A DNA stretch of 39,892 bases, from contig CAZQCI010000006.1 in assembly GCA_964592255.1 (NCBI GenBank), positions 1 through 39,892 on the forward strand, in the 5' to 3' direction. Positions 21,265 to 39,485 of the stretch are shown piece after piece. A model generated the notes under the pieces. It saw nothing but the letters and a program-made list of their open reading frames with translations, was not told the origin of the DNA and did no database searches. A program made the position numbers and the translations under genes. Numbering within the stretch: the stretch's first letter is position 1; each line of letters begins with the position of its first letter. Source of the DNA: an uncultured Nitrospiraceae bacterium (GTDB lineage Bacteria; UBA10199; SBBF01).

Positions 21265-22275
21265 ATGATTGGTATTTTGCTTATCAACCTTGGAACTCCC
21301 GATGCGCCTACTACTTCAGCGGTACGGAAATATTTGCGCGAATTTTTGTCCGACCCTCAAGTTATTGATATTCATCCTTTGATGAGATGGATGTTGGTGA
21401 ATTTTATTATTAGTCCTTTTCGTTCACCCAAGTCGGCCGCACTTTACGAAAAAATCTGGACCAGGGAAGGTTCCCCTTTATTAGTACACACCCGAAATTT
21501 AACGGAAGAAGTGGGGAAAAAATTAGGATCTAATTATCGCGTTGCTTTTGGCATGCGTTACGGTCAGCCTTCCATTCGGCAAGGTTTGGAATCTTTAATT
21601 CAAGCGGGAGTCTCCTCAATTAAAGTATTGCCACTCTATCCTCAATTTGCCCTGTCTTCCACGCAGTCAACCATTGATCATTTGCGCTCTCTTCTGCCGC
21701 AGCTTAAAGATCCTCCAGCACTCGAAATTCTACCGCCGTTTTACAATCATCCAGCTTATATCGATTCTTTTTTTCAACAAGGAGTTAAGGTCATTAAAGG
21801 CTCTCCTGTGGATCATATTCTTTTCAGTTTTCATGGCTTGCCTGAACATCAAGTCAAAAAAACTGATTCCACGGGTCAACATTGTTTTCAAAAAGAAAAT
21901 TGTTGTGACGTTATCACTGATGCCAACAACAAATGTTATCGGGCGCAATGTTTTGCTACAGCCCGCGCGATTGCAAAAAAAATGCAGCTTAAAGAAGAGG
22001 ATTATACGATTTGCTTTCAATCTCGCTTGGGTCGCAGGCCCTGGATTAGGCCTTATACAGATGAGGTGATTTTAGAACTTCCAAAAAAAGGAATTAAGAA
22101 TGTTGCCGTTTTTTGTCCGGCTTTTGTAGCCGATTGTTTAGAAACATTAGAAGAAATTGCTCTGCGTAGTAAAGATCTTTTTATTAGCGCTGGTGGTAAA
22201 GAGTTAAAATTAATTCCTTCCCTTAACGCGGAACCTATCTGGGTGGAAGGGCTTTCTCAAATTCTGTCTTCATGA
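21265..22275 (+). CDS. hemH: ferrochelatase (HemH)
   Basis: N-terminus LLINLGTPD..VRKYLREFLSD and the ferrochelatase fold, at 336 aa. Confidence 0.85.
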   Translation: MIGILLINLGTPDAPTTSAVRKYLREFLSDPQVIDIHPLMRWMLVNFIISPFRSPKSAALYEKIWTREGSPLLVHTRNLTEEVGKKLGSNYRVAFGMRYGQPSIRQGLESLIQAGVSSIKVLPLYPQFALSSTQSTIDHLRSLLPQLKDPPALEILPPFYNHPAYIDSFFQQGVKVIKGSPVDHILFSFHGLPEHQVKKTDSTGQHCFQKENCCDVITDANNKCYRAQCFATARAIAKKMQLKEEDYTICFQSRLGRRPWIRPYTDEVILELPKKGIKNVAVFCPAFVADCLETLEEIALRSKDLFISAGGKELKLIPSLNAEPIWVEGLSQILSS

Positions 22276-23447
22276 ATTTTTTAGATTCCATTAAAAACTT
22301 TCAAGAAGCTATCACAGGCCCTACGTCCTTATCCTTAATAAAGGAATTTGAAAGGAATGAAGATGAATGGCAGGAGCTGATTTGCCAAATTGAAAACGCT
22401 GAAAAAACTATTTTTATTTCCACTTTTTTTATTGAACCCGATTTTTATGGGCATACTTTAGTCGATGCCCTTATCCGTGCGATAAATCGGGGAGTGGTCT
22501 GCGTTGTGATTGTTGATCAATCAGGTGAACGTCTGGCCGGTTACATGCATCATAAAGGTGGGGATATTGCTTTTCGTAAAAAATGGTTCCAGTTTATAGA
22601 AGCTGGAGGTTACCGGATTGAGCATCAGCCGGCCCATTGCTTTAAACGCTGGGCTAGCCGCTTTACTCCGGGAGGCAATCATTTCAAATTTTTTGTTTTT
22701 GATGAAAAACAAGCAATTCTAACGGGCAGAAATATTGGCATCACCAGTTTTGAAAAATGGCAAGATTACGGAATGCTTGCCGAAGGTTCCTTTGTTACGT
22801 GGTTGGCTCAAACTCGGAACCATCTTTTAGCCATCAATAAGAAGGAATCTCTCATTTCTTTATTTCCTCCGCCTGTAACTTCATCCTCCCCTCAAGAAAA
22901 TATCGAATATGTAGATTTTGATCCTTTTCATATGAGAGGAAGCAATGCCATTACTTCGTTGTTTCTCGCTAAAATAAAAGCCGCACGTTCTGAAATTCTT
23001 ATCAGCAGTTTTATGTATAAGCCAACATCATGCTTGAATCGGGCTGTCATGGAGGCTTCCTTGAGGGGGGTAAAAGTCAAGCTGCTCACCAGCGGAATTA
23101 ATGCGTTGCCGGACGGTAAGGTGGCTTATTGGGCGGCGGCTTGCGGTTATCAGGAATTGTTGGTGGCTGGCGTTGACATCTATGAATCAATCATCCCTGA
23201 GCATAGTAAGATTGTAGTTATTGATGGAGCATGGGCAGCTTGTGGTTCTTATAATTTCGAATTTGCGGCCCATGACCGTTTGCGCGAAGGAATTGTGTCG
23301 AGTCACAATCCTGCTTTTGTCAAAAGATTGAAAAATATTTTGGAGAAGCGTTTACAGGAAAACGTGAGTAAGCTGGTTAAAGGAGAAGGTTCGTTTAGAC
23401 AACGCATCGGATATGCGCTGATGAAATGGTTCAGATGGTTTTTTTAG
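22272..23447 (+). CDS. phospholipase D superfamily protein with two HKD motifs
   Basis: Two HKD motifs: HFKFFVFDEKQAILTGRN and HSKIVVIDGAWAACGSYN (HxKx4Dx6G..N). The ATGA start/stop overlap with hemH suggests translational coupling. No TM segment. Confidence 0.7.
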   Translation: MNFLDSIKNFQEAITGPTSLSLIKEFERNEDEWQELICQIENAEKTIFISTFFIEPDFYGHTLVDALIRAINRGVVCVVIVDQSGERLAGYMHHKGGDIAFRKKWFQFIEAGGYRIEHQPAHCFKRWASRFTPGGNHFKFFVFDEKQAILTGRNIGITSFEKWQDYGMLAEGSFVTWLAQTRNHLLAINKKESLISLFPPPVTSSSPQENIEYVDFDPFHMRGSNAITSLFLAKIKAARSEILISSFMYKPTSCLNRAVMEASLRGVKVKLLTSGINALPDGKVAYWAAACGYQELLVAGVDIYESIIPEHSKIVVIDGAWAACGSYNFEFAAHDRLREGIVSSHNPAFVKRLKNILEKRLQENVSKLVKGEGSFRQRIGYALMKWFRWFF

Positions 23448-25408
23448 TTTTTCCGCCATGCGTGCACAAAATCGACTAAAGCCATGACGTTATCCACGGG
23501 GGTTTCAGGCAGGATGCCGTGGCCAAGATTGAAAATAAATCCGGGGCGATGCCCCACGCTTTTTAAAATTTTTTCCGCTTCTCTAAAAATAACTTCCGGT
23601 TTTGAAAATAAAATCAAAGGATCTAAGTTTCCTTGAACAGCGACGTCATTTCCCAACTGATCCCAAGCGGCTTCGATATCACAATGCCAATCGATGCCAA
23701 TGACGTCGCCGCCAGTTTTTTTCATCAGTGGCAATAAAGATGCTGTCTCGGTACCAAAGTGGATCACAGGAATTCCTTTTTTAACTCCTTGAATTAGTTT
23801 TTTCGAGTGGGGAGCAACGTAAGTGCTATATTCAGACGGATTAAGCTGACCAATCCAGCTGTCGAAAATCTGAATGACTTCAGCACCTGCATTAATTTGT
23901 TCATTCAAATAGTCGATTGAGGCAACAGTGATTTTATCGAGAAGCTGATTCCACGCTTCCGGATGTTCGTGCATCAGGCGTTTGGTGAGGATGGAATTTT
24001 TGGGGCTGCGTCCCTCGATCATGTAAGAAGCGACAGTAAAGGGCGCCCCGCAAAAGCCGATCAAAGGAATTTGAGGGTCCATGTGCGACCGCACTTTTTT
24101 GATGGCACTTACGACATAGGAGAGCGATTCTTTTACATTCACTTTTTGAAGTGCTGCGATGTCGTCTAACACCCTCACAGGATTGGCAATGACTGGGCCT
24201 TCTCCTTTTTTATAATCAAGTTTTAATCCCATCGGTTCCAATATCAGCAAAATATCAGCAAAGATAATGGCCGCGTCTACATTCAATCGTTCGATGGCCG
24301 TTAAAGTGGCTTCAGCAGCGCGGTCGGAGTTTTTGCAGAAATCCAAAAATTCCATGCCGCTTCGTGACAAATGATATTCCGCCATATAGCGCCCGGCTTG
24401 ACGCATGAGCCAGACGGGAATTTTTTTGTTAGGTTGCCTGTGGCAAGCGTTTAAAAAAATATTTTCTCTGGTTTTTTGTTGTTGGTCTCTGGTCTCTGGT
24501 CCCTGGTCTTTCGTCTTTAAATCCAGATGAGGATAATCCCTCCATACCTGGGCTTCATCAGCACGTTTTCTCTTTTTGTCCAAAATTTCTTTTCCCTTTT
24601 CGGCGACTAAGTTAATGAGAGCATCGTTTTTGTTGGGGTTGGCTTCACAATCGGGAAAAATTTGGTTGTCCCGCAAATTTTCACTACAAACAGGACCAAT
24701 AGAGGCGATACCGACACGATGAAGGGCACGACGGAAAGCCAGTTCTTCATTTCTTTGCCGTACTACTTGCAATACATGATCTACATGAACTTGAGTCGTG
24801 AAAAGGCAGAAGTCAACACGGCCGGCTAATATTTCATCAATGGCTTTGTTGAGCGGGTTTAAATCATCCGGTAGTGCCCAAGAATAAACTTGAAGGGTTG
24901 AAACTAAAGCCCCCTTTTTTTTCAAGCCGTTTAAAAACTCATCGTTGGATACGCCATATTCTAAAACAGTGATTTTTTTTCCTCCAACATCCACTGTATC
25001 CAGCGTGGCTAATATTTCGCGCCAGGTGTTGGGTTCTTTCACAATATAAGCCATAGGAATATTATTGAGGGTGCATACCGCCTTTGGCTTAGGACCACGG
25101 ACAACTATTTTGGTTTTAGTGGAAAGTTCTTTATGAATTTCTTCCTTAGAAAATTTTGTTTCTAAAGTGGCAAGCAAAGTGCGTGTTGCCACCCCGGTCA
25201 TCAGGACGAGGTAATTGATGTTTCCTTTTTTAAGTTCTTCAAAAAAATGGAAAGCCTGGGTGTTATTTTCTAGGGGTATTTCTTTAAGAGCTGGCGCTGG
25301 TAAAGCAGTTCCGCCATGCTTTTCGATTAACCTTTGAAGTGGTAACTCCATGCGGCTTTCAAAAGCAACGATAGAGAGTCCTTCCAAATTTTTTGTGCTG
25401 GATGGCAT
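23444..25408 (-). CDS. hemE: uroporphyrinogen-III synthase (HemD-like) fused to uroporphyrinogen decarboxylase (HemE)
   Basis: The C-terminal ~350 aa carry the HemE hallmark PVWLMRQAGRYM and full-length URO-D similarity. The N-terminal ~260 aa resemble HemD (HEM4). The two are joined by a charged low-complexity linker. This is a single uninterrupted 654-aa ORF. Confidence 0.75.
   Translation of the reverse strand: MPSSTKNLEGLSIVAFESRMELPLQRLIEKHGGTALPAPALKEIPLENNTQAFHFFEELKKGNINYLVLMTGVATRTLLATLETKFSKEEIHKELSTKTKIVVRGPKPKAVCTLNNIPMAYIVKEPNTWREILATLDTVDVGGKKITVLEYGVSNDEFLNGLKKKGALVSTLQVYSWALPDDLNPLNKAIDEILAGRVDFCLFTTQVHVDHVLQVVRQRNEELAFRRALHRVGIASIGPVCSENLRDNQIFPDCEANPNKNDALINLVAEKGKEILDKKRKRADEAQVWRDYPHLDLKTKDQGPETRDQQQKTRENIFLNACHRQPNKKIPVWLMRQAGRYMAEYHLSRSGMEFLDFCKNSDRAAEATLTAIERLNVDAAIIFADILLILEPMGLKLDYKKGEGPVIANPVRVLDDIAALQKVNVKESLSYVVSAIKKVRSHMDPQIPLIGFCGAPFTVASYMIEGRSPKNSILTKRLMHEHPEAWNQLLDKITVASIDYLNEQINAGAEVIQIFDSWIGQLNPSEYSTYVAPHSKKLIQGVKKGIPVIHFGTETASLLPLMKKTGGDVIGIDWHCDIEAAWDQLGNDVAVQGNLDPLILFSKPEVIFREAEKILKSVGHRPGFIFNLGHGILPETPVDNVMALVDFVHAWRKN
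24484..24518. repeat. imperfect heptanucleotide tandem repeat (GGTCTCT-like, x5) inside the HemD-HemE linker coding region
   Basis: GGTCTCT GGTCTCT GGTCCCT GGTCTTT CGTCTTT. The unit length is not a multiple of 3. Confidence 0.5.
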
Positions 25409-25424
25409 GTGGAAAACGGGAATT

Positions 25425-26225
25425 TTATTTCATGGCTTTATCGACATTAATGAAGGGAATAGTTTCACCCATCATGTATTGCGGGAGGCGCCCATCCCAT
25501 TTTTTAACGGCTTCTAATTTGATTAAATTTTGGTTTTCCCTCAACGCTTCCGTCTGAATACGAATGGCTTCGGCTTCCGCTTTGGCTTGCGCGATGCGTT
25601 GCTCGGCTTCAATTTGAATTCTCTTCAAATCGTTTTCTGCCTTTAAGGCCTGTTGTTGGGCAACCTGCTTGTCTTCGATGGCTTTTTCGTAAACGTCCGA
25701 AAAATCAAAATTCACAATCGAAAAATCATCCACAATAATATAACGCGGGGATAGACGGTTCATGAGTGTCTGTTTGATTTCGTCCTTCACTTTTGGTCGT
25801 TCCGAAACTAGTTCTGCGGCTGTAAATTGGGCTGTGGCCGCCTTAACCGATTCTTGAATGGCTGGCGCAATGACCCGGTATTCATAATCAATACCTATTT
25901 CCTGCAATAGTTTTTGAACCTGTTGCGGATCGGGATGATAGTTGAGTGCCATTTTTGTATCTACATTCTGCAAGTCTCTGGAAAAAGAAGGGGCATCCAC
26001 TTCGATCTTCTGAGATTTTACATCTATCTTTAATATTTTTTCCATCAGAGGAATTCGAAAATGAATCCCTTCTCCCAAAACTTTGTCCTGTACAGCACCA
26101 AAATGAGTGAGTACCCCACGCTCGCCTGGACCAATCAGTACAACAGGAGAAAGCCAGAAAAGAATAATGATGGTAAATAAAGCCGTTAAAATACCGCGAC
26201 CCGTTTTAATAAAATTAGAATCCAT
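25425..26225 (-). CDS. SPFH/band-7 (stomatin/prohibitin-like) domain protein
   Basis: N-terminal TM anchor, SPFH domain, and a C-terminal coiled-coil rich in AEAEAIRIQ, at 266 aa. Confidence 0.8.
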   Translation of the reverse strand: MDSNFIKTGRGILTALFTIIILFWLSPVVLIGPGERGVLTHFGAVQDKVLGEGIHFRIPLMEKILKIDVKSQKIEVDAPSFSRDLQNVDTKMALNYHPDPQQVQKLLQEIGIDYEYRVIAPAIQESVKAATAQFTAAELVSERPKVKDEIKQTLMNRLSPRYIIVDDFSIVNFDFSDVYEKAIEDKQVAQQQALKAENDLKRIQIEAEQRIAQAKAEAEAIRIQTEALRENQNLIKLEAVKKWDGRLPQYMMGETIPFINVDKAMK

Positions 26226-26241
26226 GAATAGACCTCAATTT

Positions 26242-26682
26242 TTAAGACATATCCCACAAAGGGTGAAATAGCGAAACCCACAAAAGAATAAGTACAATAT
26301 TACTGAATAAAAAAACAGTAAACCTTAAAGGAACAAAATTAAAAGTAATATGAATCAAGGAATGGACGGCACGCAATATCGTATAAGCCCAAGCCAAGGT
26401 GACAATAGAATGGGGGGCGCCTCCAGCATCCTTGAATGCTACAAAGTAAATAAGGATGACAACGTAAAATAAGACAGGCATTTCAAATAAATTCATTAAA
26501 TTGCGGGATACTACCTTCATATGAGGGGGCTCATCGCCTCCTTGGAATGTTTTGAAAAAATCAGGGTCCACTTCCTTAGTAAATTGGTTTTTGATGCGTA
26601 AGAAAGCCAGGGTCAGTAAAACACACATCACTAAAATGAACATGCCTAAAAGCGGATATAAAATGTCGATAGGATTCTTCAT
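26242..26682 (-). CDS. small 4-TM membrane protein (MAPEG-like?)
   Basis: 146 aa with four hydrophobic helices and an R..H...H motif in helix 3. It is probably co-transcribed with the SPFH gene. Family assignment is tentative. Confidence 0.35.
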   Translation of the reverse strand: MKNPIDILYPLLGMFILVMCVLLTLAFLRIKNQFTKEVDPDFFKTFQGGDEPPHMKVVSRNLMNLFEMPVLFYVVILIYFVAFKDAGGAPHSIVTLAWAYTILRAVHSLIHITFNFVPLRFTVFLFSNIVLILLWVSLFHPLWDMS

Positions 26683-26863
26683 TGCTCTCCTTTCAAGGTT
26701 TGGCCCATGATGGGGGAATGCTTTTGATTTATCAATGAAAAAAGAAGATTCAGCTTTGGTCTAGGCCAAGGCTTACCGGGCATTTCCCCCTTGACTTTAG
26801 GCGTATAAAGTAGCAAAACTTCCGCCTTTTTGAGGATAGTGTCTAATTAATTGAGGAGTTTTT

Positions 26864-28975
26864 ATGTCATCGGCTGCTAATGAAAGAATAGAAAAAATCC
26901 GTAATATCGGAATTTCCGCCCATATCGATTCGGGAAAAACCACGTTAACGGAACGTATTTTGTTCTATACGAAAAAGATTCATAAAATTGAAGAAGTCCG
27001 TGGAAAATCCGGCGTTGGGGCTACCATGGATTTTATGGATTTGGAGCGCGAAAAAGGGATTACCATTCAATCGGCTGCTACCTATGCGGAGTGGAAGAAA
27101 AACGTTATCAATATTATCGATACTCCTGGACACGTAGATTTTACTATTGAGGTTGAACGAGCTCTTCGTGTTTTGGATGGTGCTATTCTTGTCCTTTGTT
27201 CCGTTTCCGGCGTGCAAAGCCAATCCATCACCGTTGACCGTCAAATGACCCGTTACCATGTTCCGCGTATTGCTTTTGTTAACAAAATGGATCGTGCCGG
27301 AGCTGATCCGTTCCGTGTGATGGGCCAATTGCGCGATAAATTGGGTCATAATGCCCATATGATCGCCATGCCGATTGGTGCGGAAGATAAATTTGAAGGA
27401 GTGATTGACCTTGTCGAAATGAAAGCGTGGTATTTTGATGGTGACAACGGGGAAAACATTCGTATCGAAAACATCCCCGCTGACCTTTTGGAAAAAGCCC
27501 GTGAATTACGGCATGAATTGACCGCTGCCATGGGGGATTTTGATGACGAAATTGCTTCACTTTACTTGGAAGACAAAGAAGTGGGCCCTGATCAATTACG
27601 TGCGGCTATTCGTAAAGCGACCTTAAGTTTAAAATTTATTCCCGTCATGATGGGTTCGGCATACAAAAATAAAGGTGTGCAACTTTTGCTCGATAATATT
27701 TGCCACTATCTTCCCAACCCTTCGGAAGTCACTAACCAAGCTCACGACCAAGATAAGAACGAAGAAAAAGTGGTTTTGGAATCGGTACCCAACAAGCCTT
27801 TTGTTGGTTTGGCCTTTAAATTGGAAGATGGCCGTTTTGGACAGTTAACTTACATGCGTATTTATCAAGGTACTGTTTCTAAGGGCGACACTATCATTAA
27901 CTCCGTAAACCAGAAGAAAGTCAAAGTGCCTCGTTTGGTTCGTATGCATGCTGACCAAATGAACGATATCGAATCCGCCAGTGCCGGTGATATTGTTGCT
28001 ATGTTCGGGGTGGATTGCGCTTCCGGAGATACGTTTACCGACGGAAACGTGCGCTACACCATGACTTCCATGCATGTACCTAATGCGGTTATTTCTTTGG
28101 CGGTGGCTCCTAAAGACAAAGCCGCACAAGCTAATTTTTCCAAAGCGCTTAATCGTTTCTCGAAAGAAGATCCTACATTCCGTGTGCATCGTGATGAGGA
28201 AAGTGCGCAAACCATTATTTCCGGAATGGGTGAATTGCATTTGGAAATTTATATCGAACGCATGAAGCGCGAATACAATTGCGAAGTGATTGCCGGAAAA
28301 CCCCAAGTGGCTTATCGCGAAGCCATTACGAACAAAACCGATTTTGTGTATCAACACAAAAAACAAACCGGGGGTTCCGGACAATACGCCAAAATTTGTG
28401 GTTATTTCGAACCGTTGCCTTCTGATGCTGTGGAAACTTACGAGTTTGTCGATGAAATTGTAGGTGGAAAAATTCCCCGTGAATTTATTCCTTCTTGCGA
28501 CAAAGGATTTCAGGAACAGCTTAAAAAAGGTCTGCTCATTGGATTCCCAGTTGTTGGTTTTCGTGCTGTTATCAACGACGGAGCTTACCATGACGTGGAC
28601 TCCTCCGACATGGCCTTCCGTATCTGCGCCATGACAGCAATTCGTGAGTTTTATTACCAATGTAAACCGGTGGTGTTAGAACCCATCATGCGTCTGCAAA
28701 CTCAGGCTCCTGAAGAATTTCAAGGAGCTGTTGTGGGGCAAATCAACCAACGTCGTGGTGTGATTGCCGGAACCCAAACCTCCAGTAGCTATGTAACGGT
28801 TGATGCTGAAGTGCCGTTGTCTGAAATGTTTGGTTATTCCACCGATCTTCGTAGCTCCACTCAAGGTAAAGGCGAGTTTACGATGGAATTTTTAAAATAT
28901 GCCCCCGTTCCTCGCAACGTTCAGGATCTTCTGGTTAAACAGTATCAGGAAAAACGCGCGGCGGAGAACAAGTAA
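26864..28975 (+). CDS. fusA: elongation factor G family GTPase (stand-alone paralog, EF-G2-like)
   Basis: G1 [21 protein letters not shown], and EF-G domains II-V, at 703 aa. It is not embedded in an rpsL-rpsG-tuf context. Confidence 0.85.
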
Positions 28976-28980
28976 AATAC

Positions 28981-29062
28981 GGTTCGACAGGCTTGCATGT
29001 CCATGGCGCTCACCATGTCCATGGACACTCTGAACGTAGTCCCAACGGGACGAAGTCGAAGG
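28981..29062. repeat. MITE/REP-like palindromic element, family C copy 3
   Basis: Starts GGTTCGACAGGC and ends CGAAGTCGAAGG. It contains a direct duplication of ATGTCCATGG and a GTCCC-aac-GGGAC hairpin. It accounts for the spurious His-rich N-terminus of ORF 28993. Confidence 0.55.
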
Positions 29063-29070
29063 GTCATACC

Positions 29071-29457
29071 ATGAGCAAATTTCAGCCCATTCTCAGCGAA
29101 TTGAAATCGCTTCAAGCTCAATTTACAAAAGTAACCAACCATATCTGGGGGCTTAAACGTTCTTATTTAATCTTGTTACGCCAAGGAATGAAAGAGGATG
29201 ACTTTTTACCACGACGGACAAAGTCTTTGGAAGAACAAGCCTCGCAGGAATTTCAAAAGCTATATTCAAAACTTCAACATATTATCCAAAATCATTTTGA
29301 TGATGAATTTTTCTTGCTCGACTCCGATAGCGACGTGGAAGCTATCCGTATGATTATCCTCAGCATGCGTTATATTCACAATGCTTTTGCCGGTGAACCC
29401 CCTGTTGGAGAAACATTGGCTCGCCTGAATGCAGCGCTTCCATTTTCTGTGTCATAA
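29071..29457 (+). CDS. hypothetical protein (129 aa from the ATG at 29071)
   Basis: ORF with a GAAGGG SD 7 nt upstream and no recognisable domain. The upstream part of the tracked ORF is repeat-derived. Confidence 0.45.
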   Translation: MSKFQPILSELKSLQAQFTKVTNHIWGLKRSYLILLRQGMKEDDFLPRRTKSLEEQASQEFQKLYSKLQHIIQNHFDDEFFLLDSDSDVEAIRMIILSMRYIHNAFAGEPPVGETLARLNAALPFSVS

Positions 29458-29476: not shown

Positions 29477-29502
29477 CTCAATACGTTGAGTTTTATTTTT
29501 TT
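29477..29502 (+). terminator. candidate intrinsic terminator
   Basis: CTCAA-tacg-TTGAG followed by TTTTATTTTTTT. The stem is short, so it is weak to moderate. Confidence 0.35.
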
Positions 29503-30974
29503 GAAAACGTGAATCCCTTGCCTTCTCCCCGAGGGTCAGAGAACACAGAGGTTTGTTTGTCTGTGCGAATCATGAGGGCTTGTACGTTGCCAATGGAATC
29601 TTTCATTTCTATAGGTTGATCTGTTTCCAGATTTTCTAAAATTCTTTTTGGGAATTTCTTTTCTGCTACTAAACCTTTGGTGACAGGGGAGTAATAAATT
29701 TTAGGTTGAGCAATCGCTTGAGTAAATAAGGCTTTCCAATCCCAAGTTATAAATAAAATTTGGAAAAGATTTTGAGGGATGGTCAATCCACCAGGGGTTC
29801 CAAGGACCAAAAAAGGTTTATTGTTTTTAAAAACAATAGTGGGGCTCATGCTTGAAAGAGGGCGCCGGCCCGCTATAGGGCGGTTGGGAGATTTAGGATT
29901 AGTTGAAAAATCGGACAATTCGTCGTTAAGAATAATACCTGTGTTAGTGGCGATAAGCCCTGATCCAAAAGGAGAATTGAGGGTGTTAGTCATTGCAGCC
30001 ATATTTCCTTCATTATCAATGACTGAAATGTGGGTGGTGTGGGCAATAATATTGTAGTCAGAGTCCCCTAGTGCTGCGTCACGATAATCGAAATAATCAC
30101 GGATGCCGTTTAATAAGCGTTGATAAGCTTCTGTCGAATAGGGGCGCTCTTTGTTGGCTTTGTAAATGATGGCTTTGCGGAAGAGAAGACTTAAGCCTGC
30201 CCCACCCGAGCTGGGAATGGGAGCAGAGGTGATTTCATAACTATCTTTGGTAAATTGGGACGGCTTTCTCCAATGAGCCGTATAGTTTTTTAAATCGTCA
30301 GTTGTAATGAGCCCGCCATTTTTTTTCATATAGGCGGCTAATTCGTTGGCGAGTATTCCTTTGTAAAAAACATTTTCCCCACCACTTTGGATTAAGGCTA
30401 ATGTATTGGCTAATTCGTCTTGCTTAACGCTGACCCCTTTTTTAAAAGGAGTGACGAAAATGGAGGAAAGATCCGGGTCTTTTTCCAATGTGCTTTGGTT
30501 CTCAGAAATTTTTTCACTCAATTTTCCAGAGATGGGAATTCCTTCTTTAGCCAAATTAATGGCTGGTGCCATGAGGTCATTCCAAGACGTTTTCCCCAAA
30601 ACCCGGTTGATTTCACTCATGCCTTTAATAAAACCAGGGATGCCAACGGAAGTAATTCCCGACTGGAACTTTTTGGGATCTTGTTTTGTTGTTGCTGCTG
30701 GCGCAGTCTCTCGATAGTCGAGAAAGCTGAATTCTTTTTTCTGCGCATCATAATAGAGTAAAAACCCGCCTCCACCGATGCCAGAATAAAAAGGTTCTGC
30801 CACTCCTAAAGCAAAGGCGGTGGCTACGGCCGCATCGGCAGCATTTCCTCCTTTTTTGATGATGTCGATACCTATCTCACTGGCTTTGGGGTTAGCTGAA
30901 ACCACCGCTGCCTGATAGGCATGAGAAACCAGAGGAAGAATTACAAAAAAGAAAGCTAGGAAAATTTTTTTCAT
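29493..30974 (-). CDS. ggt: gamma-glutamyltranspeptidase (GGT)
   Basis: Signal peptide, the GGT fold, and the autoprocessing Thr in AHTTHISVID, with a GG-rich oxyanion region. Confidence 0.8.
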   Translation of the reverse strand: MKKIFLAFFFVILPLVSHAYQAAVVSANPKASEIGIDIIKKGGNAADAAVATAFALGVAEPFYSGIGGGGFLLYYDAQKKEFSFLDYRETAPAATTKQDPKKFQSGITSVGIPGFIKGMSEINRVLGKTSWNDLMAPAINLAKEGIPISGKLSEKISENQSTLEKDPDLSSIFVTPFKKGVSVKQDELANTLALIQSGGENVFYKGILANELAAYMKKNGGLITTDDLKNYTAHWRKPSQFTKDSYEITSAPIPSSGGAGLSLLFRKAIIYKANKERPYSTEAYQRLLNGIRDYFDYRDAALGDSDYNIIAHTTHISVIDNEGNMAAMTNTLNSPFGSGLIATNTGIILNDELSDFSTNPKSPNRPIAGRRPLSSMSPTIVFKNNKPFLVLGTPGGLTIPQNLFQILFITWDWKALFTQAIAQPKIYYSPVTKGLVAEKKFPKRILENLETDQPIEMKDSIGNVQALMIRTDKQTSVFSDPRGEGKGFTFSKK

Positions 30975-31781
30975 ATGATAGGGGGATTACTCATAATGTC
31001 TGCCATCTCCATCGTCAACGCAAAAAAATCTTATGCGCATCTTCAAGCTCTTAAAGGCATTAATCTTGAAATTGAAGAAGGGGAGTTTTTTGGCCTTTTA
31101 GGACCCAATGGCGCAGGAAAAACCACCCTTATCAGCTCAATAGTTGGTCTTTGCCGCTTTGAAGGAACTATCAAAGTCCATGGATACGATGTTAAAAAGG
31201 ATTTTATCAAAGCCCATGCCCTTGTTGGTTATGCCCCGCAGGATGTTAACCTCGATCGGTTTTTCTCCATCAAAAAAATTCTTAAATTTCAAGCTGGTTT
31301 TTTTGGTATTCCACACACAAAACGTGATGAGATTATCGATCGCTTGCTGCATCAATTCCGCTTAGAAGAAAAAGCGGATAGCCCTTACTACCGCTTGTCC
31401 GGAGGCATGCAAAAAAGAGTCTTGATTGCCAAAGCTATGGTGGGATCACCGCGTGTCTTAATTCTTGATGAACCTACTGCTGGTGTTGATGTGGAACAAC
31501 GATTTGAGTTGTGGTCTTTTTTAAAAAATCTTAATGCCGACGGAACCACCATCATCCTCACCACTCATTATATTGATGAAGCCCAAGAATTATGTCAGCG
31601 GATCGGTATCATCAATCAAGGTGAAGTTAAGGAATTAGGAACCACCGACAGCCTGATTGATAAGTATTGCGAAAAAAAGGTTATCCCTAATCATATAGAA
31701 CGAGGAACCTTAGAAGACGTGTTCCTCAAAGTGGTAGGACATAAGATGAGTGAGGCAGAAAAAAGATCAGAGAAGAAGTAG
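30975..31781 (+). CDS. ABC transporter ATP-binding protein (ABC-2 type)
   Basis: Walker A GPNGAGKTT, signature LSGGMQKR and Walker B ILDEPT. The start is probably the ATG near 30996. Confidence 0.85.
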   Translation: MIGGLLIMSAISIVNAKKSYAHLQALKGINLEIEEGEFFGLLGPNGAGKTTLISSIVGLCRFEGTIKVHGYDVKKDFIKAHALVGYAPQDVNLDRFFSIKKILKFQAGFFGIPHTKRDEIIDRLLHQFRLEEKADSPYYRLSGGMQKRVLIAKAMVGSPRVLILDEPTAGVDVEQRFELWSFLKNLNADGTTIILTTHYIDEAQELCQRIGIINQGEVKELGTTDSLIDKYCEKKVIPNHIERGTLEDVFLKVVGHKMSEAEKRSEKK

Positions 31782-31894: not shown

Positions 31895-32656
31895 ATGAAC
31901 TGGACTGGATTTTCAACTTTAGTAGAGCGGGAATTTTATCGTTTTATCCGCTTATTTAATCAAACCGTCTCTCCTCCATTGATGACGACGGTGATGTATA
32001 TTCTTATCTTCGGTTATTCCTTGGGTTCGCGCATTAAAGAAATCAACGGGTTTTCCTACATTGTCTACATCATCCCGGGGTTGATCCAAATGGGTGTGGT
32101 GAATAATTCCTACGCCAACACGTCGACGTCGCTTTACATGGCGCGCTTGGAGCGTTCTATCGAAAATGTTTTGGTGGCACCCTTGTATCGTTTTCAAATT
32201 GTTACAGCTTATATTCTTGGGGGTGTGTTGCGTGGTATGGTTGTAGGCCTGACTATCCTTGGAGGGGCCGCAGTTTTTGTTAAATTACCCATTCATAGTT
32301 GGACCATTATTTTAGTTTCTCTTTTCTTTACCTCGGTTTTGTTCGGGGGGCTGGGAATTATTTCTGCCCTATGGGCCGAAAGCTGGGAGAAGATGGCGAC
32401 GTTTACCAATTATGTCATCACGCCTTTTATTTATCTAGGTGGCGTGTTTTATTCCATCCACATGCTGCCGCCGTTTTGGATGAAAGTTTCCCTTCTTAAT
32501 CCTATTTTCCATTGCATCGATCTCACCCGTTTTGGTTTTTTAGGAGTATCCGATTCCCCCATTTGGGTTTCTTTAACCCTTTTGATAACCTCGGCTGTTA
32601 TTGTCTACCTGGTTTGTGTCGCCCTTTTTTGGAAAGGGTATAAACTGCTAAGATAA
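31895..32656 (+). CDS. ABC-2 family transporter permease
   Basis: 253 aa with six predicted TM helices, cognate to the preceding ATPase. Confidence 0.8.
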   Translation: MNWTGFSTLVEREFYRFIRLFNQTVSPPLMTTVMYILIFGYSLGSRIKEINGFSYIVYIIPGLIQMGVVNNSYANTSTSLYMARLERSIENVLVAPLYRFQIVTAYILGGVLRGMVVGLTILGGAAVFVKLPIHSWTIILVSLFFTSVLFGGLGIISALWAESWEKMATFTNYVITPFIYLGGVFYSIHMLPPFWMKVSLLNPIFHCIDLTRFGFLGVSDSPIWVSLTLLITSAVIVYLVCVALFWKGYKLLR

Positions 32657-32699: not shown

Positions 32700-32906
32700 G
32701 TGAGTTCAAAAACAACCCAGCCTGTTACCGTTCGGTTTTCCATAAAAGAACTTAAAATGCTGAAAAGGGTTTCGGGGAAAAAAACCAAATCCGAAGCCAT
32801 TCGCACTCTTTTGCTTCAAGAAGTTGAGCGTCAAAACCAGATTGAGCTTGGGAAAAAAATTTACGGCAAAATGAAACCCTCCGACTTTGATGATCGCCTT
32901 ATTTGA
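32700..32906 (+). CDS. vapB: ribbon-helix-helix antitoxin (VapB/CopG-like)
   Basis: 68 aa with an N-terminal beta-strand (VTVRFSIKELKMLKRV) followed by two helices. It is immediately upstream of, and overlaps, the PIN toxin gene. Confidence 0.65.
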   Translation: MSSKTTQPVTVRFSIKELKMLKRVSGKKTKSEAIRTLLLQEVERQNQIELGKKIYGKMKPSDFDDRLI

Positions 32907-33285
32907 TACTAACATTTATATCGACGAATTAATCGGCCGTCTTCCGGCAGGGAAATTCAACAAATGGCGCTTGCAATACATCCTCCGCCTTTCTCCCGTT
33001 GTTTACCATGAATTGCTCAGAGGGGCCCGTAATCTTTCCCTCATCCACGAAATTCGGCAAAAGACACTTTTATTACCTGCTCCCAGTTTCACTATGTGGG
33101 AAAAAAGCGCATATATCTTAAGACATTTTCGTGAAAAATTCGGTTCTTCCGAAGAATTGCACAAACTCCAAAACGATATCCTCATTGCTTTATCAGCACG
33201 GGAAAATGGAGCTCTTCTTATTACACGAGACAAGCATTTTAAACAAATAGCCGATTTTTTGGCTTTTTCTTACCTTATTGTTTAA
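32890..33285 (+). CDS. vapC: PIN-domain ribonuclease toxin (VapC)
   Basis: Begins with the PIN motif LFDTNIYID. It has conserved acidic residues and the LITRD motif near the C-terminus. It overlaps vapB by 17 nt. Confidence 0.75.
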   Translation: MIALFDTNIYIDELIGRLPAGKFNKWRLQYILRLSPVVYHELLRGARNLSLIHEIRQKTLLLPAPSFTMWEKSAYILRHFREKFGSSEELHKLQNDILIALSARENGALLITRDKHFKQIADFLAFSYLIV

Positions 33286-33422: not shown

Positions 33423-36400
33423 TTGTTGCGGGGAAACTTCATTGCGGTAATTTTTATGGCTCCTCCTGGCCCGGTAACATTAAGAAGTCTTTTTTCAGCC
33501 ACACCATCAGCGAGTGGAGGAGTTGGTGATGTTGATGGGACCACTCTTGATGCAATGGCAACAGGACTTGCAACGAACAATCCAGGAGTCATTTATGGGA
33601 TTGATTCTGTAACAAGAGAGGCTTTGCTGAGAGCTTTAGGAGACGCGTCAGTAGGAGGAATGCCATTAGTTGGTAATTTATGGACAAATCAAGCAGCATT
33701 TTCGTCAGCAGCCAGAGAAGAGGCTGATCCAAGTGTTTCTTCTCTTAGTCCTGATCTGTCTGTTCCCGGTTTAAGACGTTATGTGGCTTTAGGTGATGCT
33801 TATAAGGTAAAAACAGATCCCCATTCGGGAAAACAAAGTTATGCAAGAACGTCTACAGGGCTTCATAACTGGGGTGAACTTTTAGAATTTATTTCTTCCG
33901 CCTTAACAGAGTCTGGGGAACCCTCAATCGAATTAAATATTAATCAATCCGATTTTTCCACATTGCGTCCACCTCCGGATTTTTTATCTGCTGTGAGGGC
34001 ACTTCTTTCCTCCCCTGAGGCTCAAAGTAAAAATTTATCTTTGGTTCTTCATGGAGATTTTAAAGATGTCCCTGTCATTTATCGTTTTAAAGATGGCGAT
34101 ATGACCGTTTCTTCCCAAGACACCAGTTATCCGGAAGCGGCTAGTTTTTGGGCAGATGAACGAGTCCAAGAGGTTTGGCAAACTTGGGGTCGGGAGCATC
34201 GTGAGTACCCAGCTCTTCTTAATGCCTTACAGCAGACACATGTAGAATTAGGGGAAGCCCCCTTGGGGGATTTTTTAGAGCGGGTTATTGAGGTGTATAA
34301 TCAGAACATGGAGTTTTATCCGGATAAAAAAATTCAGGATACAGGGCGGGGGAAAATTTTTGATTGCATTCATCAGTTACAAACAAAATTACGTGAAATT
34401 GCTGTGGCTGTGGCGCAGGAAGAAGGTCTAGTTCCTCCTCCTGCGGCTTTAACTTGGGATCCGGTTTTTGATATTCTCAACCACCATCCCTCCTCGCATC
34501 GTCAAAGCTGGGTGATCATCGGTGCGGGGCAGATGGGGCAGGCTTATGCACGGACTTTGTTGCGTAGAATAGATCATGGGATACTCGACTTAGACGCCGA
34601 TATTATTTTGGTACAATCTTCAACAGCCGTGATTGATGAGCTAAATGGCCCAGGCACCAACGTAAAACAATTTCCCGGTATTGCGGTTAACCCAACCAAC
34701 AATCGCCGTTTTCATGTGCTTAATTTATCTCAAAGGGATGAAGCCCTTCGTGCTTACCTTGATCGATCCAAACAAACAGGGTCAACCTCTAAAGATCAAA
34801 AAGTTGTTTTGTTAACTGTGCGTGTCCATCAGTTAGGACAAGTATTAGATCAACGTTTGTTGAGTGCTGTAGCTGAATTACAGCCCGATGCTTTGGGTAC
34901 CCCTCTTAAATCTTTCAAACCAGAGCAAGATGATGAAGGTATTTTGCCGTTTAGAGATGGTCAGCGTGTGTTAGAGCACGCATCTCCTGGCTTGGGTGGT
35001 CGCTTGGTACTTGTAGGTGGATTTGGAGAAGCCAGAAAAATTCTTTTAGGAAGTGCGGATGTTTCTCAAACAGCGGCAGGAGGTGATGAGACAGCCGTGC
35101 ATCTTATAGCGGATGGATTAGATATTTCAGAACGTTACGTTGGTGCTGATATGGCAGCCAAGGTCAATATCGATGGCGCTGCTAAAAATGCCACCATCTA
35201 CGCATCTGGCCGAAGATTAATGGCCCGCGCCTTGGCTAATCCTAGCCCGGCTATACATGAAGACTGGGCCGATTTGCAGGCATTGCTTGCATCCGAAAAA
35301 GCAAGAAACATTACTATCCAAGACGAAGTAGGCGCGCGCTTAGGACCCCATCATGGCTTAAGTCTTGTCCATCTTCCTACATCTCAGGGCGCTAAAAATG
35401 ATGCGGACTACTGCCTGCCTCGTAGTACTGTTTTTCTTATAGAAAGAGTGCGCCCTCAAGTTGCTAAAATTATCCGAACCGGGGATTTGAATTTATTAAA
35501 ACAATTAATTGCTGAAATTGAGATTGATAAAGAAGGTATTATGGGAACCCGCAATACGCGGGATGGGTATATCGATCAAATTTTATATACAGTTTATGAT
35601 TCTTTAGTTTCATCAGATAAGTTTACTGGAGATTTTGCCACCTTCTACAAAACTTATCATCCTTGGCAAGGAGAGAAAGAACAGGAAGGACGCAAGGCCA
35701 TTGCTGCTTTAATTGGCTTGGCACAAAAAAGAGGAATTATCCTTCCTCGCGGAATTTATGAAGCCTGGAATTTTTATCATCCGGAAAATCTGATCGACAT
35801 TCCGCCTGAAGCCCAAAGAGATGATGCAGGTTTAGATGGTGCGAGGCTCCAACCTGTATGGGGCCTGCCTGAGCCTTGGTTAAGTGGTTGGTGGTGTGTG
35901 ATGCATAGTATCCACGGTAAATATACTAACCCCGCACATCGTTTAAAAACTCCCAAACCAAGTAGGGTGGCTCAAGATTTACGTAATTTAAAAACAGCTA
36001 TCCTGACTTTGTCTACGGCCACTTCCTTAGAGTCTCATCATGGACAATATCCGGAAGTTACCAGCCGTCTTCTTATTATTGCCGAACGCTTGGAAAATTT
36101 GGCCAAGATTTTTGATATAAATGGATTTAGTGAAGAAAAATTATCATCCTCTGTTAAAGCATTACGCGGTATTTTGAGTGAAGTGCAAAGAACTTTTGAA
36201 GAAGATGTTAATGACGTTTCTGTATTGTTGATTCATCTCATGAACATTGCCCAAAAAATTCATTCTGTGGAAAGAATATTGGCTCAGGATGAGAAAGCTC
36301 AACAAAAACCTGCTGCCTCAAGGAGGCGTCAATCCCAGCCAACGGCATCAGCGCTTGGTAGCCATGCTGGTGTTGTGGCTTCGATGTTTATGGCACTCCA

Positions 36401-36746
36401 AGGTGCAGGAGAAGTAAAAAGTCCAGGGGTTTTACAAACTTCCTTTAATCCGGATGTCGAGCAAGTTTTGACCGTGCAGATTGGTGGGGCCGCTACAGCA
36501 GAGCTTATGGATCTTGCCGCCTCTGGAGGGGTTGAACCAGAAGTCATAGACACCATTAACTCCGCAGTGCTTGGTGGCGATAGTGATGCCGCCTCTGATT
36601 TGGCTTTAAAAGTTTTGGGAGAAAATCCAGCAACCTGGGATAAAGCTCAAGGATTTGATTTAGCTTCTAACGCAACCGAAGAAGGAGGGATGGCTTTTGT
36701 CGGTTACACCACGCCGATTATTACCTTAGTTCCGATATTAGGATAA
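33423..36746 (+). CDS. large hypothetical protein (1107 aa) with Rossmann-like GxGxxG motifs
   Basis: Uninterrupted ORF with motifs WVIIGAGQMGQAYARTLL and LVLVGGFGEARKIL, an Ala/Ser/Gly-rich N-terminal ~120 aa, and no signal peptide or TM segment. Its GC is visibly higher than that of its neighbours. Confidence 0.5.
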   Translation: MLRGNFIAVIFMAPPGPVTLRSLFSATPSASGGVGDVDGTTLDAMATGLATNNPGVIYGIDSVTREALLRALGDASVGGMPLVGNLWTNQAAFSSAAREEADPSVSSLSPDLSVPGLRRYVALGDAYKVKTDPHSGKQSYARTSTGLHNWGELLEFISSALTESGEPSIELNINQSDFSTLRPPPDFLSAVRALLSSPEAQSKNLSLVLHGDFKDVPVIYRFKDGDMTVSSQDTSYPEAASFWADERVQEVWQTWGREHREYPALLNALQQTHVELGEAPLGDFLERVIEVYNQNMEFYPDKKIQDTGRGKIFDCIHQLQTKLREIAVAVAQEEGLVPPPAALTWDPVFDILNHHPSSHRQSWVIIGAGQMGQAYARTLLRRIDHGILDLDADIILVQSSTAVIDELNGPGTNVKQFPGIAVNPTNNRRFHVLNLSQRDEALRAYLDRSKQTGSTSKDQKVVLLTVRVHQLGQVLDQRLLSAVAELQPDALGTPLKSFKPEQDDEGILPFRDGQRVLEHASPGLGGRLVLVGGFGEARKILLGSADVSQTAAGGDETAVHLIADGLDISERYVGADMAAKVNIDGAAKNATIYASGRRLMARALANPSPAIHEDWADLQALLASEKARNITIQDEVGARLGPHHGLSLVHLPTSQGAKNDADYCLPRSTVFLIERVRPQVAKIIRTGDLNLLKQLIAEIEIDKEGIMGTRNTRDGYIDQILYTVYDSLVSSDKFTGDFATFYKTYHPWQGEKEQEGRKAIAALIGLAQKRGIILPRGIYEAWNFYHPENLIDIPPEAQRDDAGLDGARLQPVWGLPEPWLSGWWCVMHSIHGKYTNPAHRLKTPKPSRVAQDLRNLKTAILTLSTATSLESHHGQYPEVTSRLLIIAERLENLAKIFDINGFSEEKLSSSVKALRGILSEVQRTFEEDVNDVSVLLIHLMNIAQKIHSVERILAQDEKAQQKPAASRRRQSQPTASALGSHAGVVASMFMALQGAGEVKSPGVLQTSFNPDVEQVLTVQIGGAATAELMDLAASGGVEPEVIDTINSAVLGGDSDAASDLALKVLGENPATWDKAQGFDLASNATEEGGMAFVGYTTPIITLVPILG

Positions 36747-36781: not shown

Positions 36782-38542
36782 TTGTCAAAATTCTGTTTTT
36801 GTTTTACAAGAAAAAAAATGAACATCACTCTTTCGGTTTCCCTTCTTCATCCTCAACATCATTATATTAATGTTTCTTATCGTATTAAGCGTGATGAAAC
36901 AGGGCCGTTGGTTTTGGTTTTTCCCGTGTGGTCGCCGGGCAGTTATCTGGTAAGGGAATATCAAGGGAATGTGGAGGATTTTCGGGTTACAACTTCTTTA
37001 GATAAAAAAATTACTTTTGAAAAAATTTCTAAAAATCGTTGGCGACTTTTTGCAGGTGAGGCCAAGGATATTCTCATTACATATCGTGTTTATACTAGTG
37101 AATTAAATGTCCGCTCTTGTTATGTGGATCATCGCTTTGGTTTTTTTAATCCCACTTCAGTTTTCTTTTATCCCGAAGGGGAGCTCAATAATCCCGTTAA
37201 ATTAAAAGTGACTCTTCCGCCCCGTTGGAAAATAGCGGTTACAGGTACCACGAAGACAGAAATCTTGTTTAAGGATTTTGATCACCTCTACGATACGCCC
37301 GTATTAGCAGGCTCGTCTTTGGTTTTTGAAAAATTTACTGTTGGTTCCACGCGTTATCGCATGGCTTTTTTTGGGGATCATTTTTCAAATACAAAACGTA
37401 TGGCCCAAGATGTTAAAGCCATTGTTACCGAGCAGAAAAAGATTTTTGGTAAAAATCCTTGTCGAGATTATCTCTTTCAAGTTCTTTTTGTTAAAGGAAA
37501 GTACGGTGGGTTGGAGCACGCGCATTCTTCCACAAATCTGTTCGACGGGTTAAGTTTGGATGATCCTAAAAGATATCGAGAATTTCTCTCCCTTCTTTCA
37601 CACGAGCATTTTCATCTTTGGAATGTTAAGCGCATTCGTCCTCTTGAATTGGGGCCTTTTGATTACGAAGCTGAAAACTACACGCAAGACCTTTGGTTAG
37701 CAGAAGGATTTACCAGCTATTATGATGATTTGTGTGTGCTGCGTGCCGGTAAGATGACTCAAAAAGATTATTGGGATGTTCTTTCCCAAAACATTAAAAA
37801 ATTTGAAAATCAGAAATCTAAATCCACCAATTCTCTTACCGATTCCAGTTTTGATTCGTGGATTCGTTTTTATCGCCCTACCGAAAACAGCCCCAATACC
37901 GTGATGAGCTATTATCTTAAAGGCTCTCTGGTTGCCCTTTGGCTTAATCTATTGATCTTAAAAAGTACTCAAGGTCGTAAAAGCCTTGATGATGTGATGA
38001 GAAAGCTATTCGAGCGTTATCAACAAAATCCACAATTAGGAATAACCCGAAATGAATTTTTGTCCCTTCTTAAGAAAACGGCGCCTCTTAACGTGCAGGC
38101 TTTTGAAAAAGATTATTTAACTGGTACCAAAAGTATTGTGTGGAAAGAATGGGCGACTTTTTTTGGTTTAACTTGGGAGCCCAATAAGAAACAAGCACCC
38201 TATTATTTAGGGATTAATCTTGAAAAAAGAAACGGCCGGATTTTTATTCGCTTCGTTGCGGAAGATTCTCCTGCTTACCATAGTGCTCTTCGTGCTGGGG
38301 ATGAATTACTTGCTATCAATGGTGAAAGAATAGAGGATGAAAAACAGTTAGACCCTTACCTTAAAAAGAAGAGTGCTATTCTTTTGTTTTCACGTTTTGG
38401 GAAAATAGGGGAGACTCAAGTCAATTTAGCCCCCAATAAGAATTTTGATTCTAAACTTATTGTATCACCCCGCCAAAGTAAGGCACAAAAAAAATTCCTT
38501 CGGACGTGGTTGAAGGCTCCTAGAGTACAATCCAAAGATTGA
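36782..38542 (+). CDS. M61-family glycyl aminopeptidase-like metallopeptidase with C-terminal PDZ domain
   Basis: Zinc motif HEHFHLWNVKRIRP with a downstream E, and a PDZ-like GINLEKRNGRIFIRFVAEDSPAYHSALRAGDELLAING. The start is probably the ATG at 36818. Confidence 0.6.
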   Translation: MSKFCFCFTRKKMNITLSVSLLHPQHHYINVSYRIKRDETGPLVLVFPVWSPGSYLVREYQGNVEDFRVTTSLDKKITFEKISKNRWRLFAGEAKDILITYRVYTSELNVRSCYVDHRFGFFNPTSVFFYPEGELNNPVKLKVTLPPRWKIAVTGTTKTEILFKDFDHLYDTPVLAGSSLVFEKFTVGSTRYRMAFFGDHFSNTKRMAQDVKAIVTEQKKIFGKNPCRDYLFQVLFVKGKYGGLEHAHSSTNLFDGLSLDDPKRYREFLSLLSHEHFHLWNVKRIRPLELGPFDYEAENYTQDLWLAEGFTSYYDDLCVLRAGKMTQKDYWDVLSQNIKKFENQKSKSTNSLTDSSFDSWIRFYRPTENSPNTVMSYYLKGSLVALWLNLLILKSTQGRKSLDDVMRKLFERYQQNPQLGITRNEFLSLLKKTAPLNVQAFEKDYLTGTKSIVWKEWATFFGLTWEPNKKQAPYYLGINLEKRNGRIFIRFVAEDSPAYHSALRAGDELLAINGERIEDEKQLDPYLKKKSAILLFSRFGKIGETQVNLAPNKNFDSKLIVSPRQSKAQKKFLRTWLKAPRVQSKD

Positions 38543-39485
38543 TCAGCAGGTAAGTTCCCACAAGAACAATCAGCGACAGGATGTCGAGTTTGCGTGAAGC
38601 CACTTCCTTACCCCGTGTATAAAGGGTAAGCGAAACAGTTGATTCCAGAATACTGAGGAAAATATAGACAATCGACAAAATATTTAATTTGTCGGCTAAA
38701 GTCAGTAGATTCGTATCAGGTAGTGATGAGCCGATAACATATTGGCTGGCTACCGCGGCAAAAATAGCGCCAATACCTAAACCAAAACGCGGGTCCAAAT
38801 CTGTCGGCTTGATGAGAAAAGATAAAAAAGAAATGAGTGTTGCAATAAAAACGCTTAAAAATAATTTTAAAAAATAACCATAACCGGGACGTTCAATAGA
38901 AAGAGAAAAAATATAGCGGGAGTAAGCTGATTCGTTATTGCTGGGGAGGGAAATATCTCCATAATTCGTTTTATAGCCGTGTGATTTTACATCTGCAGAT
39001 GATTTTCCTACTTTCCAACCGGGCACTTGAATGTCAGGGCTGAAGGAAGAATTTTCTGTATCGGCTACGAAACGCACTCTAAAATCTTCATTTTGTGAGT
39101 CTTCTACCTCGATAGTTAAATTATGGTTATCTAGTGGAAAGTGAGAAATTTCCCAAAATTTTGTGATGGTGGCTGTCACTCGCGCCACGGCGTAGTTGTA
39201 GCCTTCTACTTGGCTTGAATAAATCGTTTCCTTCGAATCTGTCCGCCCATTCACGACTTCAAATGTGTCGATAGGTTTAATGTCCGATCCTTTCCAGCGG
39301 AACCAAATGTAGAAATCCGTGGAAAATTGGTTTTCCTTAAGGCTTAGGGCGTAAACTTGATTAACGTAGATTCCTACATAGACATCCTGAACAGGAGGCT
39401 CTTTGTCCTCAGCAGCATAGATGGAGTTTGCAAAGATACAGAGGAACAATAAGAAAAATATTTTTTTCATAATTCGGAAAAGCAA
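38520..39485 (-). CDS. pentameric ligand-gated ion channel-like protein (prokaryotic Cys-loop receptor homolog)
   Basis: Signal peptide, a beta-rich extracellular domain of about 190 aa, then four TM helices. An SSLPDT motif closes M2, as in GLIC/ELIC, and the M3-M4 loop is short. Confidence 0.5.
   Translation of the reverse strand: MLFRIMKKIFFLLFLCIFANSIYAAEDKEPPVQDVYVGIYVNQVYALSLKENQFSTDFYIWFRWKGSDIKPIDTFEVVNGRTDSKETIYSSQVEGYNYAVARVTATITKFWEISHFPLDNHNLTIEVEDSQNEDFRVRFVADTENSSFSPDIQVPGWKVGKSSADVKSHGYKTNYGDISLPSNNESAYSRYIFSLSIERPGYGYFLKLFLSVFIATLISFLSFLIKPTDLDPRFGLGIGAIFAAVASQYVIGSSLPDTNLLTLADKLNILSIVYIFLSILESTVSLTLYTRGKEVASRKLDILSLIVLVGTYLLINLWIVL

Follow-up and report, generated by a model that had tools for sequence, protein, structure and literature searches.

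A divergent protein with a predicted glycerol-3-phosphate dehydrogenase-like core defines a rare multi-domain bacterial family

The long open frame at positions 33423-36746 of the 39,892-nucleotide stretch of DNA analysed here (the window) probably specifies an unusual oxidoreductase, since the fold predicted for the centre of its product resembles that of NAD(P)-dependent glycerol-3-phosphate dehydrogenase (GPDH). The full reading, which we regard as moderately probable, is that of a divergent GPDH-fold oxidoreductase of new multi-domain architecture, belonging to a rare family and encoded by a chromosomal gene that is vertically inherited and fast-diverging. A previously unannotated protein family is thereby defined, and a "hypothetical protein" of 1100 amino acids becomes a testable enzyme hypothesis, for which a nucleotide-binding pocket is predicted and candidate catalytic residues are named. 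The predicted architecture embeds the GPDH fold next to a 250-residue domain without a solved structural relative. We consider the importance of these findings to be moderate, and nothing so far hints at a new principle.

The gene, its product and the domain layout

An earlier examination of the letters and their open reading frames (the sequence-only reading) had described an ORF of 1107 aa. The uninterrupted frame on the + strand stands; its length, which a program-made ORF list counted from a TTG codon, probably does not. The ATG at 33456 is the likelier start judging from sequence comparison, because a 1096-aa product is present in an NCBI-derived collection and because a similar M-[PA]-x-x-P motif opens the N-terminus of the homologs. 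Evidence for the gene of this 1096-aa protein, P0001 (33456..36746, + strand), comes from the ORF list, the NCBI-derived collection, 26 homologs and a confident AF2 model. A scan for promoters and terminators around the gene yielded nothing above chance. A frameshift was considered as the cause of the atypical, non-basic C-terminus of P0001 and dropped, as all other frames are closed. The absence of database annotation and the odd composition of the tails would fit a spurious or decaying ORF without a functional product, but to this we give practically no chance: the frame is open for 3.3 kb with no competing open frame over the C-terminal part of the gene, 26 homologs align across ~850 residues, the family has invariant motifs and the predicted fold is of high confidence. 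The homologs and the structure prediction have already effectively refuted such an explanation.

The AF2 prediction of P0001 was built on a 27-sequence alignment and gave a pLDDT above 90 for 661 residues and a pTM of 0.77. The protein would be a cytoplasmic multi-domain protein, in which a disordered N-terminal tail is followed by a domain without a recognised fold, a two-domain GPDH-like core, a helical extension and a disordered C-terminal tail, all encoded on the + strand. Residues 1-95 (33456..33740) make up the N-terminal tail, which is Ala/Gly/Ser-rich, as the sequence-only reading had noticed, and is also predicted to be disordered (pLDDT below 50) and to lack a signal peptide. An alpha/beta plus helical domain follows at residues 96-345 (33741..34490), in which >= 90% of the family members retain W139. 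The predicted NAD(P)-binding oxidoreductase core occupies residues ~346-790 (34491..35825), with a Rossmann domain preceding a helical substrate domain. Residues ~791-953 (35826..36314) form an all-helical extension, with confident AF2 helices H806-H950, for which a PDB sequence-profile search returned coiled-coil noise only. The C-terminal tail, residues 954-1096 (36315..36743), is Ala/Gly-rich by composition and predicted to be disordered (pLDDT below 50), and it has a hydrophobic end, ...PIITLVPILG. In sum the two tails comprise ~240 residues. Secretion and membrane insertion were assessed by a simple hydropathy test in 19-residue windows. The Kyte-Doolittle maximum was 1.48, at the extreme C-terminus, and neither an N-terminal hydrophobic h-region nor a Sec signal was found, in agreement with the claim that a signal peptide and TM segments are absent; the long, disordered tails would still be compatible with a secreted effector. 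The accessory domains and the tails probably serve partner binding or localisation.

The GPDH-like core and its conserved residues

The fold check proposed in the sequence-only reading was carried out by structure prediction followed by a structural search. It showed that the modelled core of P0001 has a GPDH-like fold, with Foldseek matches of the AF2 model to 1txg (E 8e-8) and 1yj8 (E 2e-7); no solved structural relative was found for the 250-residue N-terminal domain. Both domains of the GPDH fold, namely an N-terminal NAD-binding Rossmann domain and a C-terminal helical substrate domain, are present in the predicted core. By hhalign, the family core matched a GPDH alignment with an E of 2.3e-5 over the N-terminal half of the core only, and the comparison of the C-terminal half was non-significant. 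Among Pfam and NCBIfam models, none scored above threshold for P0001, with PF07479 and NCBIfam GpsA unmatched; the isolated core reached 12.7 bits with PF01210, against a cut-off of 23.1.

Within the region covered by the significant alignment, the motifs of GPDH could be placed residue by residue. The sequence-only reading had pointed to two Rossmann-like glycine motifs, IIGAGQMG (residues 354-361) and LVGGFGEA (residues 519-526; 35010..35033, + strand). Both exist, but only the first is a dinucleotide-binding loop: its GAGQMG portion (residues 356-361; 34521..34538, + strand) fits the GxGxxG pattern and aligned by hhalign with GPDH GAGSYG/GAGSWG, with G356 and G358 being invariant in the family. 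The second, in which G522 is invariant, aligned with the SGP(S/T)FA strand-loop of GPDH and would belong to the same NAD domain. Residue K485 (34908..34910, + strand), within the family motif P(A/S)K(S/A)(Y/F), aligned with the lysine of GPDH TKG and is a Lys in 25/25 sequences, and K577-N578 (35184..35189, + strand), within the family motif GGA(N/L)KN, aligned with GPDH GA(L/V)KN, which contains the catalytic lysine, and are conserved in 26/26. The GA(L/V)KN and TKG motifs are themselves recognisable in alignments of solved GPDHs from the PDB. P0001 departs from the family consensus in several motifs, with IDGAAKN where the consensus is AGGANKN and GFGEA where it is GFFAAP.

Three conserved segments lie in the C-terminal half. 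D649...C653 (DxxxC; 35400..35414, + strand) is invariant in 26/26 sequences and by eye resembles the D-L-x-x-T-C substrate-site segment of GPDH. In GTRNTRDGYID (G697-D707; 35544..35576, + strand), residues R699, N700, D703 and D707 are invariant in 27/27, and the segment may be the counterpart of the phosphate-binding Arg-Asn of GPDH SRNRR/GGRN. PWQGEKEQEGR (P736-R746; 35661..35693, + strand) stands out by conservation, the family motif being YPWxGxxAQEGRNG, and has a by-eye parallel in the GPDH VVEG... loop just ahead of the last helices, where hhalign was non-significant. The D649...C653 and R699-N700 pairs stand in the same order as the Asp of GPDH GDLxxTC and the Arg-Asn of SRNRR/GGRN. Since the hhalign comparison of this half was non-significant, the proposed GPDH equivalence of D649, R699 and N700 is one of pattern only.

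Family distribution and proposed function

The sequence-only reading had called the ORF an orphan, and this description fits Pfam, NCBIfam and word-indexed searches. A word-indexed search with P0001 alone returned only the query, as did one with the 27-sequence alignment, in which candidates that have words in common with the PALP/HATPase_c domains of the long members probably crowded out the rest. It does not fit the exhaustive phmmer/HMMER scan of 1.84 billion representatives, which identified 26 distant relatives covering residues ~100-950, with identities of 20-32% within the family alignment. At 50% identity the family amounts to ~27 clusters among these representatives, and the cluster of P0001 has a single member; the protein is thus very rare. 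The family was found in 'Deltaproteobacteria'-labelled MAGs, some of them from groundwater, and in marine metagenome contigs with a gammaproteobacterial-looking gene order; the metagenome scan used 8 closer family sequences as its query. Among the relatives that carry a label, the nearest are from MAGs that NCBI names 'Deltaproteobacteria bacterium'. A literature search for GPDH-like giant proteins gave nothing useful, and P0001, P0003 and P0004 had no match to the anti-phage defence models of PADLOC-DB at E <= 0.1.

The GxGxxG glycines, K485, K577, N578, D649, C653, R699 and N700 are invariant in all family sequences that cover them, including members on contigs with Gammaproteobacteria-like gene order. 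In the mechanism that we propose, the Rossmann domain would bind NAD(P)(H), and hydride would be moved to or from the carbonyl or hydroxyl carbon of a small anionic substrate with a phosphate or carboxylate group, seated in the cleft between the two core domains. K577 would act as acid/base, as in GpsA/GPD1, and the anionic group would be held by R699/N700. The substrate is probably not simply DHAP, given the further family-invariant residues C653, D703, D707, W737 and E744 and the large accessory domains.

A different role for the same fold has to be weighed here. The dehydrogenase core accounts for less than half of the protein, whose terminal motifs are common to unrelated giant neighbour proteins in the relatives, and the structural matches include a non-catalytic GPDH-fold protein, the trypanosome mitoribosome assembly factor mt-SAF21. 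The fold could thus have been retained as a nucleotide-/ligand-binding or structural module of a large assembly protein, a pseudo-enzyme or scaffold in which the tails and helical extension do the work through protein-protein interaction. We judge this unlikely, though deserving of some weight. All residues matching the catalytic and cofactor motifs of GPDH are invariant at only 20-30% overall identity, as one would expect if the enzyme is active, and the tails and the N-terminal domain are the least conserved parts.

The fusions and gene neighbourhoods of some relatives hint loosely at amino-acid or oxo-acid chemistry. PALP and HATPase_c domains are fused to relatives P0017 and P0025, and homologous giant proteins of the Aminotran_1_2 type are encoded directly downstream of relatives P0006 and P0010; an association with PLP enzymes is missing from the window. 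Many members, and unrelated giant neighbours as well, share an M-P-x-D-P-x-K-like start, disordered Pro/Ala-rich tails of ~100 residues and strongly basic C-termini ending in hydrophobic-x-Arg/Lys. A more speculative proposal, to which we give little probability, is that the members are a new class of giant GPDH-fold enzymes that uncultivated 'Deltaproteobacteria' handle as cargo, by a targeting or export route not described so far. The shared termini would then serve as signals for sorting, for instance by directing the proteins into prey cells, into host cells or to a large assembly, where the core, sometimes fused to or paired with PLP enzymes, would carry out an amino-acid or oxo-acid transformation.

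Genomic context and comparison with known systems

The genes bracketing the ORF are those named in the sequence-only reading. Upstream is a vapBC-like pair, consisting of an RHH antitoxin gene (32700-32906, + strand; a weak Pfam match, E 0.008) that overlaps a PIN toxin gene (32887-33285, + strand; Pfam, E 1.6e-10), and downstream is an M61 peptidase gene (36782-38542) whose product has a PDZ domain. The same reading took the elevated GC and the nearby toxin-antitoxin (TA) module as signs of acquired cargo, possibly a secreted effector, delivered or stabilised together with the vapBC pair. Besides adjoining that pair, the gene encodes a very rare protein with long, disordered tails, and its slot downstream of an ABC-2 permease gene varies among relatives.

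Profiling of GC and codon usage, with 40 kb of host sequence as the reference, revealed nothing foreign. The GC content of the ORF is 0.444, against 0.421 for the window and 0.418 on average over the genes (sd 0.027; z ~ +1), and 1-kb windows over the ORF reach 0.462, compared with 0.465-0.471 elsewhere in the window. The values by codon position are 0.574 (GC1), 0.435 (GC2) and 0.323 (GC3), the last being below the mean of 0.383 (z ~ -1.2). The GC excess therefore sits in codon positions 1 and 2 and reflects amino-acid composition. In synonymous codon choice the gene is typical as well (distance from the rest of the window, z = -0.84). The rise in GC on which the earlier claim relied is hence small and within normal variance. 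No tRNA genes were found in the window, no repeats above chance flank the gene, and no integrase is present among the annotated neighbouring genes in a scan that excluded 21265-29457 and 38520-39485. Relatives on plasmids or viral contigs were not found either.

Synteny was anchored on the genes of a gamma-glutamyltransferase (GGT; 29493-30974, - strand), an ABC ATPase (30975-31781, + strand) and the ABC-2 permease (31895-32656, + strand), whose orthologs are 49-74% identical across six related contigs (L081, L086, L088, L093, L094 and L095). In four of these, L081, L086, L088 and L095, a homolog of the big protein is encoded downstream of the GGT/ABC/ABC-2 block, and the vapBC pair is missing from the slot. 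The slot of L093 holds an unrelated vapBC (PIN 24% identity) and no family member. The vapBC pair is a variable insert between the ABC-2 permease gene and the big gene, and lies outside the system of the protein. The adjacency of the M61 gene is not conserved: in a scan of GTDB representative genomes the best identity of this peptidase was 45%, and 0/80 loci had a relative of the big protein. We regard both neighbours, vapBC and M61, as unrelated to the big gene. In the four syntenic contigs the flanking proteins are 49-67% identical and the big protein only ~27-31%, indicating that the big gene is diverging fast. Host-like composition and orthologs in conserved synteny across the phylum had been named beforehand as evidence against acquisition; this is largely what was found, with the syntenic homologs coming from one poorly sampled lineage and not from across the phylum. 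Acquisition as cargo is consequently very improbable. Closeness to a TA pair was a poor guide to foreign origin in this case, the TA pair being the mobile insert and the big gene the resident.

The position of a family member after the ABC-2 permease gene in the window and in L081, L086, L088 and L095 would be explained if the big protein were a functional partner of this transporter, for example by modifying or supplying an exported compound. We consider such a partnership quite doubtful. Other genes intervene (the vapBC pair in the window and an OB-fold+HD gene between the permease gene and the family member in L086), L093 and L094 keep GGT/ABC/ABC-2 without a family member there, and no ABC gene adjoins the members in L082-L084, L087 and L089-L092. 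The adjacency thus looks like the inherited gene order of one lineage.

Three known systems are relevant for comparison. As in islands whose cargo is stabilised by vapBC, the big gene adjoins a vapBC pair, and the chromosomal slot concerned is variable. It differs from such cargo by its host-like composition and codon usage, by syntenic homologs that lack the TA pair, and in that its surroundings revealed neither mobility genes nor boundary repeats, the TA pair being the mobile part.

The second comprises the 6-phosphogluconate-dehydrogenase (6PGDH) C-terminal-like oxidoreductases, which include UDP-sugar dehydrogenases, 6PGDH, beta-hydroxyacid dehydrogenases, ketopantoate reductase, opine dehydrogenase (1bg6), P5C reductase, prephenate dehydrogenase and imine reductases. 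Like the predicted core of P0001, they are built from a Rossmann domain and a subsequent helical domain, with the active site at the interface of the two, and several of these families use as acid/base a lysine from the first helix of the second domain. Their structural scores are clearly lower (Z <= 15.2; 13.5 for opine dehydrogenase), and the motif set of P0001 fits GPDH better.

GPDH itself (GpsA/GPD1; PF01210 and PF07479; PDB 1txg, 3k96, 1evy, 1z82 and 1x0v) shows sequence identities of 14-18% (13% for 6iuy). The core of P0001 differs from it by insertions, including one of ~40 residues between the D...C and RN motifs, and by its setting in a protein of ~1100 aa with a 250-aa N-terminal domain, a 160-aa helical extension and the disordered tails, and the family adds its own invariant residues (C653, D703, D707, W737 and E744) to those of GPDH. 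What the two have in common by hhalign is the GxGxxG loop, the TKG-type lysine K485 and the GA(L/V)KN-type pair K577/N578.

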